From: Euryarchaeota archaeon UBA552 | Lineage (GTDB): Archaea > Thermoplasmatota > Poseidoniia > Poseidoniales > Thalassarchaeaceae | NCBI GenBank assembly: GCA_002499585.1 | Contig: DAMH01000027.1 | Location: forward strand, 63,789 to 127,788 | Length of the DNA: 64,000 bases | Direction of reading: 5' to 3' | Shown here: positions 4,257 to 37,020 of the stretch, piece by piece | Numbering within the stretch: position 1 is the first letter of the stretch | Layout: each line of letters opens with the position of its first letter | Notes under the pieces: generated by a model | What the model was told of the DNA's origin: nothing | Database searches by the model: none | Seen by the model: only the letters and a program-made list of their open reading frames with translations | Made by a program: the position numbers and the translations under genes

Positions 4257-5429
4257 TCATCCGATAAGGACGACTTGACCTGTCCAATGGAAGACCAGTA
4301 GATCATCTGAAAGGGATTTTCCAAAGCCAACTATCATTCCCCCACTGGTGCCGATGTATTCTTCGGACCAGACCCCAGATTGTTCACGGAGGACCCAAAT
4401 TGAACCTGTGCAGAAGTCTCCATAGAGGAAACCCTCTTGCAGTATTTCGGGACCCCAATCCATCCAGAACCCGCCTGTTATGGAGCAATTTCCATTCTCA
4501 TGAGGATATACTACGACAGGATCGGTGTAGTTAGGTCCAACTTCTGGTTGGCTGGGTCTGCATTTTCCATCATCGGCGAACTCATAGAAACCCTCCCTGT
4601 CGGACCATCCGAGGTTAGCCGGAACGGTAAGATTCACCAAATTGACCTCTTCCCAGCAGGCTTGTCCGACATCCGCTATCCACAGTCCTCCGTCTGGGTC
4701 TAAGTCGAATCTCCATGGGTTCCTCAGCCCATGATGAAGGACATATGGATCACCGGCTCCAGTATCAACAGCTGGCGACACCGTGTTGTCTTCGAATTTA
4801 ACGTAATACATGGTCCCCAGTGGATTTGACGAATTTTGCCCGTTCAACAAGGGGTCGTCAGAGCTGCCACCATCTCCGATGCCCCAAAGGAAATTGTTGT
4901 CACCTGCGTGTATTAGGTGCCCTCCATTGTGGTTCCTGTATGGTTGGTTAACCCTCAATAGTACCGTTAGTGTGTCAAGATCAAAGGTATCCATTTCGTC
5001 GATTTTAATTGAGGCGAGGATCAGGTCGGATTGGTTCGGCCCCTCGCAGGTACCGTCCTCGATGTACGAGATCAGTACAGTCCCCGTGTTCTCAAAATCT
5101 GCCTCTAAGGCCATTCCAAGCAGGCCCTGTTCCATGTGACATCTATTCACCACTTCACTGAGGTCAACGGCCCAGTCGAGAGTTTGCCCGTCCCAGGATT
5201 TAACATATCCATTCAGGTAGAGGATCCACTGGTTACCAGTGAGAGGGTTGATCAAAGACCGGTGGGGGGTCTCGGATCCCTCTATGATAGTTGTGCAACC
5301 AAGCTCGTCCAATTCCAATTCGCATTCTGAACTTGTAGGTTCCGGCCATTGAAAGCCGTCATCTTCCTCAAAACATCCTGAGAATGCTGCAGATATGATT
5401 AGTAACGCTACTGCTGCATTGACCCTCAT
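4257..5429 (-). CDS. PQQ-dependent sugar dehydrogenase (GSDH/HHIP-like beta-propeller) lipoprotein
   Basis: Lipobox-like FSGC, EQGLLGMAL, NHNGG, GLRNPWRF, DVGQ..WEEVN, SITGG, YGDFCTG. Start at ATG 5429 behind a GGGTGAGGGGG RBS. Confidence 0.85.
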   Translation of the reverse strand: MRVNAAVALLIISAAFSGCFEEDDGFQWPEPTSSECELELDELGCTTIIEGSETPHRSLINPLTGNQWILYLNGYVKSWDGQTLDWAVDLSEVVNRCHMEQGLLGMALEADFENTGTVLISYIEDGTCEGPNQSDLILASIKIDEMDTFDLDTLTVLLRVNQPYRNHNGGHLIHAGDNNFLWGIGDGGSSDDPLLNGQNSSNPLGTMYYVKFEDNTVSPAVDTGAGDPYVLHHGLRNPWRFDLDPDGGLWIADVGQACWEEVNLVNLTVPANLGWSDREGFYEFADDGKCRPSQPEVGPNYTDPVVVYPHENGNCSITGGFWMDWGPEILQEGFLYGDFCTGSIWVLREQSGVWSEEYIGTSGGMIVGFGKSLSDDLLVFHWTGQVVLIG

Positions 5430-5436
5430 ATCCCCC

Positions 5437-6513
5437 TCACCCAAAGTAAGCTTGGATGCCCGGGACATTTGATACTGCTGCTCCGTAGGTTCCCAAGTGG
5501 TCCTCAGCTGTGGTAGGTATCATGTCATCAGTGTAGAGAAGATCCCAGAGAATTTCCTTTCCTTCTGCGTCATCGCTCAATGACCCGAGGGCGGTCTGTA
5601 CAAGTGCAACAGCGTCAGCATCGAGGTAATTCGGGGCATTCACATCCGGGTTGTACAACGCGGGGTGACTTGGTGCTTGCCCAAATGGTTCCAACATCAC
5701 AACCTCGTCACGATCTAGGCACCAATCGTATGCATCGCTTCCCGTGCAGTATGAGTCATAGACAGTATCTTTGATGAGGGCTATATCGCCCGTTCCATCC
5801 ATCATACATCTCATGGCTCCCTTGTACGAAGAATAGGGGGTGCTGCCTCTGGGTATACTGGAATCAGGAGAGAAAAAGCCATGGACAGTAGCTTCCAAGG
5901 AATCTATTTCTGACGGGTCGCCCTTGACTTCAGCGTATCCGTTACCGATGAGGTATCCCATAGGTATCAGCATTCCTGCAGATTTGAGCCATCCTGTGTG
6001 GCATGATTTCTTGCCCCTCATCAGCTCAAACGGGTCGGTGTCGGGGTCGTCATCCAAGTAAGCGGCTGCCATATCAGAATCAGCTTTGACCCATGCTGCT
6101 GCATTGTAGTATGTTCTACCGTCTGATTTTGTCTCGGCAGCTAGGACGCCGAGGTCGTACACCTCCCAAGCCAGCCAGCCAGCTGCGCCGTCGACGAAGC
6201 CGATATCGGCATTGCCTTTGTCGATCGCCTCTATCAATGGTACGGAATCGGTCACAGGATATATCTCTACGTCCCAATCATCGCCCATTAGGGAACTCAT
6301 TTTATCGGCGAGTTGTTGTGGGTTGGTGTCCCAAACCTGGTAATCTTCTTGCACTTGGTATGCTATGGTCAAACAATTTTTGTCAGGATCGCATTCCTCG
6401 TAATCGGGTTCGTAGACCAAGAGGTAGAAACCACCACCTCCGAGGACGAGCATTACAGCGATTGATATGGCTTTGTTGGCGGCGGCCCACTGTGCCGCAT
6501 TCTTCAGAATCAT
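5437..6513 (-). CDS. Membrane-anchored single-lobe transferrin-like binding protein (PhnD/SsuA/transferrin superfamily)
   Basis: N-terminal TM anchor; motifs FVDG, TYYNAAAWVK, KKSCHTGWLKSAGMLIP, YSSYKGAMRC..DG.GDIALIK, PSH and DLLYTD match transferrin lobe motifs. Confidence 0.85.
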   Translation of the reverse strand: MILKNAAQWAAANKAISIAVMLVLGGGGFYLLVYEPDYEECDPDKNCLTIAYQVQEDYQVWDTNPQQLADKMSSLMGDDWDVEIYPVTDSVPLIEAIDKGNADIGFVDGAAGWLAWEVYDLGVLAAETKSDGRTYYNAAAWVKADSDMAAAYLDDDPDTDPFELMRGKKSCHTGWLKSAGMLIPMGYLIGNGYAEVKGDPSEIDSLEATVHGFFSPDSSIPRGSTPYSSYKGAMRCMMDGTGDIALIKDTVYDSYCTGSDAYDWCLDRDEVVMLEPFGQAPSHPALYNPDVNAPNYLDADAVALVQTALGSLSDDAEGKEILWDLLYTDDMIPTTAEDHLGTYGAAVSNVPGIQAYFG

Positions 6514-6534
6514 GCCTATCCCACATAGGGGGGT

Positions 6535-6542
6535 GAAATAAA
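6535..6542 (-). promoter_or_regulatory. Putative TATA box of the transferrin-like gene
   Basis: TTTATTTC on the minus strand, about 22-29 nt upstream of ATG 6513; spacing fits a leaderless or short-leader archaeal promoter. Confidence 0.55.
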
Positions 6543-6561
6543 TTTTAGGCTTCCCTAAAAT
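6542..6561. promoter_or_regulatory. DtxR/SirR/MntR-type operator (ATTTTAGG-cttc-CCTAAAAT)
   Basis: Perfect 8-bp inverted repeat with a 4-nt spacer containing the TTAGG-N4-CCTAA core; abuts the TATA box and covers the BRE position. Confidence 0.75.
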
Positions 6562-6587
6562 AACAAATGTGGTCTTGACAGATTACA

Positions 6588-8060
6588 CTAAGGATCGGTG
6601 AGAAGACTGGTTTCTGTGAAGAGGCTCGGCCCACTGGCCAAGTAGGCCATAACGCCCCTCCTGGATCTGGAGTCTTCGGGCGTGGAGTTATTTCCTGTGG
6701 CACACGATCCTGTGCAGCCGTCAGCAAAAGAGATGAAGATCCGTCCTTCCCTATCTATGTGTAGGTCGTTGAAATCTAGTAAATTACGATTCGACCCACC
6801 TATATCACGGCAATCACCACTGTTGAGGCAGATACTGCCGATCTGGACAGGGTCACTGGTTACCCTGTATGTGTGAAAAGTCGGTTTCTCATCAAGGGCA
6901 TTGAGACTGATTGTCACGTATAGGTGGTAACTGACATTTGCGTTTGCGAAGTGGGCATTGCCGTCCCATTCCTGGCCATCAATGTCTGGTTGACCTAGTT
7001 CGCCTGAGTCTTCGCTCCCTAGGTATGTGACTGCGATCCTCCCTGGGTCCCCGGCGTCAACCTGTGGGAAAACTGAGGAGATGATCTCCACCGGGCTGAT
7101 TCGGGTACTAGTTTGGTCCCATGTTAAACCCGAGTCTATGCTCCTAGACATGTACACCCCCTCGTCTGAGCCTGTCCATATGTGGTATGCATTGGACTGA
7201 GTGTCCGTTGCAACCTCCGAGTTTTTTCTGGGATAGGGTGTGCCGGCATCTTCACCCATTGTCTCTGCGAACCAAGAAAATCCGTTGTCCTTGGATACTA
7301 TTACTGTTGGAGTCTCGACTCTGGGGGTTACATAGACCGTACCGTCCGGGGCGGAAGTTATTGCCCCATGCAGGCCTCCGTCGGTCGTGGCCAGCCCGAT
7401 TATTTGTCCACCAGCCTCGAACGATGCACCGCCATCGAAGCTGGTGAAGCAGAATATTCCAGCCAATTTGTTGTAACAGTAGTAAACTGCTTGCTCGTAG
7501 ATTTGCTGGGAAAATTGGCCCGCTAAACCATACCCGATATCAGTCCACGGACCTGTTGCCAGCTTGATGTGGTCATTGATTGGCGTGGTTCCAGAGTCGT
7601 GTGGATTACCTAACCAGGTTTCACCGTCATCGTCGCTCCAGCAAATCCATGATGTCTCCAATCCCTGCATTTGGACGTTGAATATTCGGTCTGTAACGGG
7701 GTCGACCCAACCCCAAGGATCATTGGTCTGAAATGCGCACATTGGCCCTTTCACGTCTTCCCAAGATCCGCCGTAATCGCACGACCTCATGACCTTCTCG
7801 AAAGCAATGAAAAACACACAACCTGATGATGTAACCCCTATGCTGGGCTCCGCTCCATCCTGTCCTACGTCACTGAGGTTGAAGTTTAGCTGCAACGGGA
7901 GATTATCCGACGGCAGCCCGTCTGGACCAGTGACGAATATTCCTTCATTGCCTGTCTCTGGATCTGTTTGAATCGGGGTGTCTTCATTTTGAATACATCC
8001 CGAGACGGCCATTGTGGCCATCATCAAAGAGAAGGTCAAGGCGATCAAGGGGTGCTGCAT
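6588..8060 (-). CDS. Secreted BNR/Asp-box repeat beta-propeller lipoprotein (sialidase-like fold)
   Basis: Lipobox VSGC; five Asp boxes (SCDYGGSW, SDDDGETW, SFDGGASF, SKDNGFSW, SIDSGLTW). Confidence 0.85.
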   Translation of the reverse strand: MQHPLIALTFSLMMATMAVSGCIQNEDTPIQTDPETGNEGIFVTGPDGLPSDNLPLQLNFNLSDVGQDGAEPSIGVTSSGCVFFIAFEKVMRSCDYGGSWEDVKGPMCAFQTNDPWGWVDPVTDRIFNVQMQGLETSWICWSDDDGETWLGNPHDSGTTPINDHIKLATGPWTDIGYGLAGQFSQQIYEQAVYYCYNKLAGIFCFTSFDGGASFEAGGQIIGLATTDGGLHGAITSAPDGTVYVTPRVETPTVIVSKDNGFSWFAETMGEDAGTPYPRKNSEVATDTQSNAYHIWTGSDEGVYMSRSIDSGLTWDQTSTRISPVEIISSVFPQVDAGDPGRIAVTYLGSEDSGELGQPDIDGQEWDGNAHFANANVSYHLYVTISLNALDEKPTFHTYRVTSDPVQIGSICLNSGDCRDIGGSNRNLLDFNDLHIDREGRIFISFADGCTGSCATGNNSTPEDSRSRRGVMAYLASGPSLFTETSLLTDP

Positions 8061-8142
8061 AGTCCCCTCTAAAGATGGTCAAACTTGAAGCCTACGAAGA
8101 AATGTGGACGAAACTTTTCAATCAACGCCACCATAGCGATCT

Positions 8143-9084
8143 ATGGGCGACGATTTTGAAGTAGTCACCGGATCGCTCGGATATTCCGGGAGATGGATAA
8201 CGAAAAGATTGTTAGAAAAGGGGGTCAATGTAAAGACTCTGACTAACGCTGTTGGCCGTGAAAATCCTTTTGGAAACAGAATAGAAATCGCGCCCCTCGA
8301 TTTCAGAGATATTGATAATCTAGCCAAGTCAATGCAAGGTGCGAAGGTACTGTACAATACTTACTGGGTTAGGTACAAGAAAGAAAAACACGGTTACGAC
8401 CATGAAATCGCCACCAGAAATAGTTCTATTTTGTTTGAAGCAGCCGCTATGGCCAATGTTGAGAAAGTCGTTCACTTCAGCGTGTCCAAGGTGAATGATG
8501 CCCCTGATTGGCCTTACTTCAGTGGAAAGGCAAAAACAGAGCAGATCTTGATAAGCTCCGGTCTAAATTATTCAATCCTCAGGCCGACGTTATTTTTCGG
8601 GGGTCAGCGTAATGTTTTGGTGAATAACATAGCATGGATCCTCAGGAAGTCGCCTGTGTTCGGAATATTTGGGACCGGGGACTACAGTGTTCAGCCTATT
8701 CATATCGACGACGTAGCGAAAATATCGATTGATGCTGCTCAAGATGAACGAAACAGTATACTCGAGGTCGCAGGGCCTGAGACTTTCTCATACAGGGAGT
8801 TCGTCAGTTTGATATCCCGTGGAATAGGGGTTCGAAGAATATTCATATCAATCCCGCCTCGAATGGGTTGGCTAGTGGGTAGAGGGATTGGGGCATTCCT
8901 CAGGGACGATGTGATAACTATGGCAGAAATAAATGGTTTAATGCAGGGCCTCATGGCTTCAGACGGTCCTCCGATGGGCTCCACAAAGTTCTCTAATTGG
9001 CTTCTCGAAAATGGTAAGCACTTGGGCACCAGATACAAGAATGATATTTCGGAAAGAAGATATGACGCCCGGCAGCCTAGATGA
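8143..9084 (+). CDS. NAD-dependent epimerase/dehydratase (atypical SDR, NDUFA9-like)
   Basis: VTGSLGYSG Rossmann motif, YFSGKAKTE, LRPTLFFG, QPIHIDDVA, EVAGPE. Confidence 0.85.
   Translation: MGDDFEVVTGSLGYSGRWITKRLLEKGVNVKTLTNAVGRENPFGNRIEIAPLDFRDIDNLAKSMQGAKVLYNTYWVRYKKEKHGYDHEIATRNSSILFEAAAMANVEKVVHFSVSKVNDAPDWPYFSGKAKTEQILISSGLNYSILRPTLFFGGQRNVLVNNIAWILRKSPVFGIFGTGDYSVQPIHIDDVAKISIDAAQDERNSILEVAGPETFSYREFVSLISRGIGVRRIFISIPPRMGWLVGRGIGAFLRDDVITMAEINGLMQGLMASDGPPMGSTKFSNWLLENGKHLGTRYKNDISERRYDARQPR

Positions 9085-35548: not shown

Positions 35549-37020
<1,472 letters not shown>

Follow-up and report, generated by a model that had tools for sequence, protein, structure and literature searches.

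A Marine Group II ocean archaeon (Euryarchaeota archaeon UBA552, Poseidoniales) encodes a single-lobe homologue of blood transferrin that carries an N-terminal membrane anchor supported by structure modelling and counterparts of the full set of iron- and carbonate-binding residues, with Lys replacing Arg at one anion-site position. Most likely, this protein is a carbonate-assisted Fe(III)-capturing binding protein of an ABC importer now annotated as a phosphonate transporter, although the metal, the anion and the hand-over to the importer are inferred from homology and genomic context. The gene lies in the window, a 64,000-nucleotide stretch of contig DAMH01000027.1 (assembly GCA_002499585.1), and shares a candidate metal-repressor operator with genes that point to low-metal conditions. 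No description of archaeal transferrins was found in the literature, in a search that did not cover every published transferrin tree. The features of the locus, in window coordinates, are as follows.

5437..6513 (-): CDS of the 358-aa single-lobe transferrin-type substrate-binding protein
6415..6474 (-): N-terminal membrane anchor, residues 14-33 (KAISIAVMLVLGGGGFYLLV), without lipobox
6190..6192 (-): codon of D108, equivalent to transferrin Asp63 (metal ligand)
6106..6108 (-): codon of Y136, equivalent to Tyr95 (metal ligand)
5974..6006 (-): anion-site loop and helix start, S170-G180 (SCHTGWLKSAG), in which T173 corresponds to Thr120, K177 to Arg124 and A179/G180 to Ala126/Gly127, and C171 is the inferred partner of C236
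5824..5826 (-): codon of Y230, equivalent to Tyr188 (metal ligand)
5719..5808 (-): cysteines C236 (5806-5808, equivalent to Cys194 and inferred partner of C171), C256 (5746-5748) and C265 (5719-5721)
5665..5667 (-): codon of H283, equivalent to His249 (metal ligand)
6542..6561 (no strand assigned): perfect palindrome ATTTTAGG-gaag-CCTAAAAT, with core TTTAGG-N4-CCTAAA, a candidate DtxR-family operator at the BRE position
6535..6542 (-): TATA-like box TTTATTTC, about 26 nt before the ATG (a leaderless-type promoter of inferred function), overlapping the last base of the operator
4257..5429 (-): downstream co-oriented gene for a GSDH-type (soluble quinoprotein dehydrogenase-like) beta-propeller lipoprotein, probably starting at 5429 (MRVNAAVALLIISAAFSGC), 7 nt after the transferrin-like stop

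Sequence comparisons placed the protein in the transferrin family. It matched Pfam PF00405 Transferrin with 60.9 bits against a cut-off of 20.3 (1.6e-16), and a phmmer search of PDB chains returned only transferrin-family chains (transferrins, lactoferrins and ovotransferrins) among the best 60 hits, with E-values down to 1.5e-22, obtained with lactoferrin. To verify the residue correspondences proposed by eye in the initial annotation, we compared three independent alignments: the HMMER alignment against PDB chains, a MAFFT L-INS-i alignment of 113 lobes, and a BLASTP alignment to the human transferrin N-lobe (E 9e-18, 29% identity over 255 columns, ending exactly on PSH/PSH). All three agreed on the four metal ligands, the anion site, the C171/C236 pair (Cys118/Cys194) and K248, the equivalent of Lys206. 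This was checked against PDB 4h0w, with a match at 678 of 679 residues. Only one of the proposed correspondences is confirmed solely at motif level: DLLYTD (324-329) against DLLFKD, which places T328 at Lys296, lies outside the BLASTP alignment and in a gappy region that MAFFT shifts by two columns. T328 is nevertheless invariant in 86 of 86 relatives.

The match to transferrin is far beyond chance. Among monolobal cluster representatives that are 50-100% identical, Asp, Tyr, Tyr and His plus Thr are complete in 85 of 86. Taken individually, D108, Y230, H283 and T173 are kept in 86 of 86 relatives, Y136 and K177 in 85 of 86, and all four cysteines in 86 of 86, which is consistent with, but does not demonstrate, disulfide formation. 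The C256/C265 pair is shared with ichthyosporean transferrins. Lys at the Arg124 position is also found in ichthyosporean and amphioxus lobes. As noted in the initial annotation, the STSG motif of PhnD is absent: S153-T154-S155-G156 of E. coli PhnD lies in the very columns of K177-S178-A179-G180, and the His157 and Asp205 of PhnD (mature numbering) are replaced by Tyr230 and His283.

The AF2 model (pLDDT 88.5, pTM 0.79) predicts a two-domain type-II binding-protein lobe, and Foldseek returned transferrin lobes as top hits (E about 1e-14, probability 1.00, TM 0.53-0.64), with open (apo) lobes such as 1bp5 and 1nft matching best. However, the PhnD-family protein AioX scored about as well (8.5e-14), so that fold alone does not discriminate between transferrin and PhnD. 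The hydrophobic stretch K14-V33 was modelled as a helix, and 81 of 86 monolobal relatives have an N-terminal hydrophobic run of at least 15 residues. In a rooted tree, the protein falls in a clade with eukaryotic transferrins (100/99) that excludes PhnD, so that the placement deep inside PhnD that would have contradicted the initial annotation was not observed. The inference made there of a membrane-tethered Fe(III)-capture protein close to the eukaryotic transferrin lobe is supported by computation, with Fe(III) binding itself inferred, but the protein is probably the binding subunit of an importer, not a free-standing capture protein.

In other Poseidoniales contigs, the gene abuts ABC_tran and BPD_transp_1 genes, and deeper archaeal homologues with the Asp/Tyr/Tyr/His set sit in SBP-ATPase-permease operons. 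The UBA552 genome has one such pair, whose permease scores 221.6 on TIGR01097 PhnE (cut-off 216.7) and whose ATPase has PhnC as best hit, and our gene encodes the only PF12974-type binding protein of the genome. In this genome, however, the ABC genes lie about 200 kb away on the same contig and their promoter lacks the operator. In addition, no PhnE-type permease is known to carry a metal, and how iron held with transferrin-like affinity would be released at the permease is unknown. The immediate downstream neighbor is the GSDH-type lipoprotein gene (Pfam GSDH 2.5e-18), a pair also found at the compared loci L003-L007.

Genomic context supports a role in iron acquisition. The core of the palindrome abutting the TATA box occurs exactly 5 times in the genome against 1.26 expected. 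Four of the five sites lie just upstream of metal-uptake genes (one at this gene, two at the FEA1-type lipoprotein gene and one at the M28-ZIP transporter gene), and the fifth in an acyl-CoA dehydrogenase/DUF1295 intergenic region. The same element precedes orthologues at 12 other loci (L003, L007 and 10 further loci), often in 2-3 copies, and at L007 it also precedes the PhnC-like gene. The operon of the FEA1-type lipoprotein (PF07692 1.3e-18; NF038033, 364 bits) includes FecCD-ABC, flavodoxin and HugZ-like genes, and neighbors of the transferrin-like gene in relatives include FEA1, flavodoxin, and FecCD with Peripla_BP_2. A DtxR-family repressor gene is present in the genome, but its best NCBIfam hits are MntR-type and far below their cut-offs. 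A sigma-70 promoter and terminator scan was uninformative for an archaeon.

Based on these observations, we propose that the lobe closes on Fe(III) with a synergistic (bi)carbonate, the metal being held by Asp108, Tyr136, Tyr230 and His283, and the anion by Thr173, Lys177 and the backbone of Ala179/Gly180 at a helix N-terminus, as in a transferrin lobe. As there is no endocytosis in an archaeon, the loaded protein would dock on the PhnE-like permease and PhnC-like ATPase and hand the metal over for ATP-driven import, as FbpA does with FbpBC. When metal is plentiful, a DtxR-family repressor would bind the palindrome and shut transcription off.

Compared with human serotransferrin, lactoferrin and ovotransferrin, the protein shares the metal ligands, the CHTG..[RK]SAG anion loop, the Cys118-Cys194 pair and Lys206, but it has one lobe, a membrane anchor, apparently no dilysine trigger (Thr at the Lys296 position, by a motif-level match) and lacks most of transferrin's other disulfides. 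Bilobal paralogues of about 700 aa exist in related archaea, some with both sites intact, for example the protein P0122. The closest named eukaryotic relatives are the transferrins of Ichthyosporea and Corallochytrium (Chromosphaera, Creolimax, Amoebidium, Ichthyophonus, Abeoforma), 34-37% identical, which share both cysteine pairs and the Lys at the Arg124 position but are secreted proteins with 2-5 tandem lobes and belong to the eukaryote clade of the tree (100/99). FbpA/FutA/HitA, which hold Fe(III) through two Tyr, a His and a carboxylate plus a synergistic anion, offer the same proposed working principle, but no such family appeared in the Pfam scan at E up to 1, which listed only PF12974, PF00405 and a chance hit. 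FbpA is convergent, whereas this protein is a true homologue of transferrin. Phytotransferrin ISIP2a/FEA1 (PF07692) follows the same ecological logic of a membrane-tethered, carbonate-dependent Fe(III) capture protein of marine microbes, but our protein has no Fea1 match, and phytotransferrin is internalized by endocytosis in diatoms (PMC7676907).

Among the alternatives, the least unlikely is a transferrin-type site devoted to another hard cation (Mn, Zn, Al, Ti, V, Ga-like), or to Fe(III) with another synergistic anion such as phosphate or oxalate, serving general metal uptake or detoxification. The resemblance of the repressor to MntR as much as DtxR and the ZIP (ZupT-like) transporter in the regulon suggest that the signal could be Mn or Zn, Lys replaces the anion-site Arg, and PDB entries among the Foldseek hits show transferrin lobes accommodating Cr, Ti, Yb, Bi and Ru, and anions such as malonate, oxalate and citrate. 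Nevertheless, the flavodoxin, FEA1-type, FecCD/Peripla_BP_2 and HugZ-like proteins of the regulon all point to iron, an Asp, two Tyr and His set with a Thr/basic-residue anion pocket is the Fe(III)-carbonate solution in every characterized transferrin, and seawater supplies millimolar bicarbonate. It is also unlikely that the protein binds iron without feeding a transporter, as a surface store or buffer, a competitor withholding iron from neighbors, or a sensor. In this genome the gene is paired only with the GSDH-type lipoprotein gene, and bilobal paralogues with degenerate ligands suggest functional drift, but the linkage to ABC genes in other Poseidoniales and in deeper homologues, the absence of another PF12974-type protein for the PhnCE-like pair and the operator before the PhnC-like gene at L007 argue against this view.

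The annotation given by JGI and NCBI to relatives, a PhnD-type phosphonate, phosphite or phosphate binding protein of a PhnCDE importer, appears improbable. It draws on the PF12974 Phosphonate-bd match (1.1e-16 over residues 59-338; 61.4 against a cut-off of 27), on the permease passing the PhnE equivalog cut-off and on the listing of phosphonate transport as a core Marine Group II trait (PMC6336850). However, the protein scores 18.6 against 261.1 on TIGR03431 PhnD and 35.9 against 112.05 on TIGR01098, the phosphonate-contacting residues are replaced, the tree separates it from PhnD (100/99), and the operator is shared with FEA1, flavodoxin and ZIP genes rather than with any phosphorus-related gene. 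Moreover, PhnJ and PhnX were each found in 0 of 101 genomes of the order, in a search that did not include other routes such as PhnA and PhnY/Z. Recent capture from a eukaryote, or contamination, is the least likely. The similarity to ichthyosporean transferrins is high and the AU test does not firmly reject a tree with archaea plus Ichthyosporea as one clade (p 0.064), but the gene lies on a 282-kb contig of even GC content with an archaeal-type promoter and, in the window, an archaeal 16S gene. Its relatives are named Poseidoniales/Poseidoniaceae, and it is present in 27 of 37 genomes of its own family, 52 of 58 of the sister family and in other classes. In relatives, it also keeps the PhnCE linkage seen in the archaeal Asp/Tyr/Tyr/His proteins that are the next outgroups in the best tree.

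A more far-reaching hypothesis, possible but tentative, is that eukaryotic transferrin did not arise in eukaryotes but descends from an archaeal single-lobe binding protein of a PhnCE-type importer passed to an early holozoan or other eukaryote. A living series would lead from bacterial PhnD, with its S-T-S-G, His and Asp oxyanion site, through archaeal Asp/Tyr/Tyr/His proteins without cysteines (Heimdallarchaeia and others) in SBP-ATPase-permease operons, to Cys-bearing Poseidoniales and other Thermoplasmatota proteins with the full CHTG..KSAG site, including ours, and then to ichthyosporean multi-lobe and animal transferrins. In the best tree, eukaryotes form one clade (100/99) joined at 94/82 to a Thermoplasmatota subclade, inside the archaeal grade. 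However, a simple sister relation is not rejected (p 0.35) and rooting on the animal branch is only marginally disfavored (p 0.064), so that the nesting of eukaryotes inside archaea is not firm.

Marine Group II archaea are uncultured and among the most abundant heterotrophs of the sunlit ocean, and their iron acquisition is essentially undescribed. The family offers small, single-lobe transferrins for biophysics, and a distant homologue in the cultured haloarchaeon Natronococcus roseus could serve for genetics. If this protein captures Fe(III) with carbonate, the trait published as core phosphonate transport (PMC6336850) is really an iron-uptake system, which changes how these archaea are placed in the marine phosphorus and iron cycles. 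Their iron uptake would depend on carbonate, like diatom phytotransferrin, and would therefore be sensitive to ocean acidification. Transferrin would also gain a prokaryotic stage in which the complete site already works as an ABC-transporter binding protein, making the origin of a textbook animal protein directly testable.

The minus-strand ORF at 5437-6513 encodes 358 aa. The window is archaeal: it carries a complete archaeal 16S rRNA gene at 35549-37020 together with eIF2-beta and NOG1-type genes, has an even GC content near 0.49, and lies on a 282-kb contig of a 1.36-Mb genome that is 79% complete. Close relatives of the protein come from Tara and other marine metagenomes, and are named Euryarchaeota, Poseidoniales or Poseidoniaceae archaeon by NCBI.

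To test the proposal of the initial annotation that this ORF encodes a single-lobe transferrin with a conserved iron and anion site, the protein was compared with family profiles and with all PDB sequences. Pfam returned two nearly equal hits, PF12974 Phosphonate-bd (1.1e-16) and PF00405 Transferrin (1.6e-16, 60.9 bits against a cut-off of 20.3). The best 60 hits among PDB sequences were exclusively transferrins, lactoferrins, ovotransferrins, melanotransferrin and the inhibitor of carbonic anhydrase, down to E 1.5e-22, and the PhnD models of NCBIfam were missed by a wide margin (18.6 against 261 bits, and 35.9 against 112). Both a MAFFT alignment of 113 lobes and a BLASTP alignment (E 9e-18, ending exactly on PSH/PSH) confirmed the residue pairs first proposed by eye, namely D108=Asp63, Y136=Tyr95, Y230=Tyr188, H283=His249, T173=Thr120, K177=Arg124, A179/G180=Ala126/Gly127, C171/C236=Cys118/Cys194 and K248=Lys206. 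Only the match of T328 to Lys296 rests on the DLL[FY]xD motif alone, although T328 is invariant. Among 86 monolobal cluster representatives, D, Y, Y, H and T are complete in 85, K177 is present in 85, and the four cysteines and T328 are present in all 86. Notably, the known substrate-contacting residues of E. coli PhnD, taken from the annotated K-12 record, fall in the very same columns with different chemistry: S-T-S-G under K-S-A-G, His under Tyr230 and Asp under His283.

An AlphaFold2 model, obtained from a 39-sequence alignment with a pLDDT of 88.5 and a pTM of 0.79, shows an N-terminal helix (residues 14-33) followed by a two-domain alpha/beta lobe. Foldseek against the PDB returned transferrin lobes first (E about 1e-14, probability 1.00, TM 0.53-0.64), but the PhnD-family protein AioX scored alike (8.5e-14). 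The fold therefore confirms the superfamily, and sequence decides the side of it. The model resembles open lobes most.

An exhaustive search of 1.84 billion representatives found 298 relatives. Those for which source names were available included monolobal archaeal proteins, bilobal proteins of about 700 aa from Euryarchaeota MAGs, multi-lobe transferrins of Ichthyosporea and Corallochytrium, animal-type transferrins, and a Heimdallarchaeota protein whose family has Asp/Tyr/Tyr/His and Thr but no cysteines. The ichthyosporean and Corallochytrium proteins are the closest named eukaryotes, and share both Cys pairs and the Lys at the Arg124 position. In some of the bilobal archaeal proteins, such as P0122, both sites are intact, whereas in others the ligands are degenerate. 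Some of these paralogues (P0123, P0124, P0127, P0129 and P0135) have lost several metal ligands in one or both lobes (for example AHPE, DHED, DQYR), although they sit directly before the PhnC/PhnE-like genes (e.g. positions 8001-10136 of L007, another Poseidoniales locus).

To place the protein within the superfamily, we built an IQ-TREE phylogeny (LG+C20 PMSF, 98 lobes, 333 columns) rooted on bacterial PhnD. PhnD is followed by a grade of Cys-less D/Y/Y/H archaeal proteins, and then by a 100/99 clade of Cys-bearing proteins. The latter contains the Poseidoniales clade (99/94), which holds the query and all the bilobal archaeal lobes, and a second Thermoplasmatota clade (97/93). This second clade is joined at 94/82 to a monophyletic eukaryote clade (100/99), in which the Ichthyosporea and Corallochytrium lobes form one group (95/79) and the animal-type lobes the other (100/100). 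A position deep inside PhnD is thus excluded. The finer claim that eukaryotes are nested among archaea is favored but not secured, since holding all Cys-bearing archaeal lobes together costs 8.2 lnL (p-AU 0.35) and forcing archaea plus Ichthyosporea together costs 31.8 lnL (p-AU 0.064).

At E up to 1e-25, the family was found in 98 of 401 genomes sampled from the phylum: 27 of 37 in the own family, 52 of 58 in the sister family of the same order, 3 of 7 others in the class, and 16 genomes of other classes. PF00405 matched nothing in 14 well-known control genomes. A scan of species-representative genomes named the hosts of the second clade as 'Thermoplasmatota archaeon' from sands and sediments. 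MAGs labelled Halobacteriales or Methanobacteriota also appeared, as did a divergent copy in the cultured haloarchaeon Natronococcus roseus CGMCC 1.38198 (positions 6001-6984 of locus L048). All but the last keep the full site. The N. roseus homologue, 29% identical to the query alignment, has Ser for the Asp ligand but keeps Tyr/Tyr/His, lacks the C171/C236 pair and has a lipobox signal; it is a possible genetic handle on the family. The only 'bacterial' record with a Cys-bearing, full-site, apparently bilobal copy (666-aa open frame) comes from a MAG labelled Pseudobdellovibrionaceae bacterium NP951 (positions 2-865 of locus L045), and may be a mis-binned archaeal contig.

In other Poseidoniales contigs, the gene sits beside an ABC ATPase and a BPD_transp_1 permease, a FEA1-family lipoprotein, flavodoxin, and a FecCD/Peripla_BP_2 system. 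In this genome the same genes are all on one contig (C18, which includes the window) but dispersed. The features considered here are as follows.

Window 5437-6513, minus strand: the transferrin-like gene.
Window 4257-5429, minus strand: a GSDH-type (soluble quinoprotein dehydrogenase-like) beta-propeller lipoprotein gene.
Window 6542-6561: the palindrome ATTTTAGG-gaag-CCTAAAAT.
Window 6588-8060, minus strand: a 490-aa predicted lipoprotein (signal ending AVSGC) with no Pfam match.
C18 137589-145801 (137.6-145.8 kb; locus L016), outside the window: the operon of the FEA1-related lipoprotein, an 811-aa surface protein, Peripla_BP_2, FecCD, an ABC ATPase, flavodoxin and a CREG/DUF2470/PNPOx (HugZ-like) protein.
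C18 155074-157395 (positions 574-2877 of locus L017, minus strand): a 767-aa fusion of an M28 peptidase-like ectodomain with a ZIP (ZupT-like) metal transporter.
C18 271.8-273.4 kb: the ABC pair.
C18 273369-273484 (positions 2869-2984 of locus L018): the intergenic region between the PhnC-like gene and a 690-aa gene.

The GSDH-type gene always follows the monolobal transferrin-like gene in this genome and in loci L003-L007 of other Poseidoniales. Here it probably starts at 5429, 7 nt after the stop, rather than at 5468, and redox chemistry at the surface is one possibility for its role beside an iron binder. The 490-aa lipoprotein gene, directly upstream of the palindrome, is not a conserved neighbor in the other loci examined. 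The permease of the ABC pair passes NCBI's PhnE equivalog cut-off (221.6 against 216.7), the best hit of the ATPase is PhnC, and the transferrin-like gene is the only PF12974-type binding protein in the genome. The Cys-less archaeal homologues sit in plain SBP-ATPase-permease operons. Neither PhnJ nor PhnX occurs in 101 genomes of the order; the MGII literature nonetheless counts 'transport of phosphonates' as a core trait (PMC6336850).

The palindrome at 6542-6561 abuts a TTTATTTC box about 26 nt before the ATG. Its core, TTAGG-N4-CCTAA, occurs exactly five times in the 1.36-Mb genome against 1.26 expected, and every copy has the extended form TTTAGG-N4-CCTAAA. The sites are this promoter, two at the FEA1 promoter, one directly before the M28-peptidase/ZIP fusion, and one in an acyl-CoA dehydrogenase/DUF1295 intergenic region. 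The FEA1 operon, whose lipoprotein scores 364 bits on NF038033 (the algal FEA1/ISIP2a phytotransferrin family), looks like a second low-iron uptake system in the same regulon. M28 is the family of the transferrin receptor's protease-like domain, but no PA or TFR_dimer domain was seen in the fusion, and any link to the transferrin-like protein is pure speculation. The same element lies before the orthologue and the FEA1 gene in L003, before the monolobal gene, the FEA1 gene and the PhnC-like gene in L007, and before the transferrin-like gene in ten further loci, within about 10-190 nt and often in two or three copies. In this genome, however, the intergenic region beside the PhnC-like gene lacks the TTTAGG-N4-CCTAAA operator and holds another palindrome instead, TTATGTCT-N6-AGACATAA; compared with L003, the transferrin-like/GSDH pair and its operator appear to have been moved out of this spot.

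Interestingly, a related palindrome, AATTTGTTCGG-N4-CCTAACAAATT, with the same TTAGG/CCTAA half-site type, precedes the gene of Heimdallarchaeia (positions 5967-5990 and 6001-8831 of locus L012, MAG GCA_029882335.1). These archaea carry a Cys-less PhnD-like binding protein with Asp/Tyr/Tyr/His and the anion Thr in an SBP-ATPase-permease operon, and in the tree this family lies between PhnD and the transferrin-type clade. As for the regulator, the genome encodes a DtxR-family repressor with Fe_dep_repress and Fe_dep_repr_C domains, whose best NCBIfam hits are MntR and DtxR, both far below their cut-offs. The half-sites of the palindrome appear to resemble those of the DtxR box TTAGGTTAGCCTAACCTAA.

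Taken together, homology, site conservation, fold class, linkage in relatives and operator recurrence suggest, with reasonable though not full confidence, that the protein is a membrane-anchored, single-lobe transferrin-type protein that captures Fe(III) with (bi)carbonate and delivers it to the PhnCE-like ABC importer, and that it is repressed by a DtxR-family regulator when metal is sufficient. The ligand bound, the hand-over to the importer, the repressor and its metal, and the disulfides are inferred, without expression or biochemical evidence. Some features speak against this explanation: the ABC genes are unlinked in this genome and lack the operator, the permease looks like a bona fide PhnE, Lys replaces Arg124, and the metal specificity of the repressor is not established. 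Binding of a different hard metal, or the use of a different synergistic anion, is possible but unlikely. It is more doubtful still that the protein binds iron without a transport role or is a genuine phosphonate or oxyanion binder, and recent eukaryotic capture appears the least probable origin.

No description of archaeal transferrins was found in the literature searched, which did not include McQuaid et al. 2018. The superfamily link itself is recorded in databases, as NCBI already names relatives 'PhnD/SsuA/transferrin family substrate-binding protein', and a PhnD-like ancestry was proposed by McQuaid et al. 2018. By sequence, site and tree, the protein belongs with the transferrins and not with PhnD, although it is not bilobal. 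Homologous to transferrin, it would work like FbpA, and would differ from every characterised transferrin in being a prokaryotic ABC-transporter subunit.
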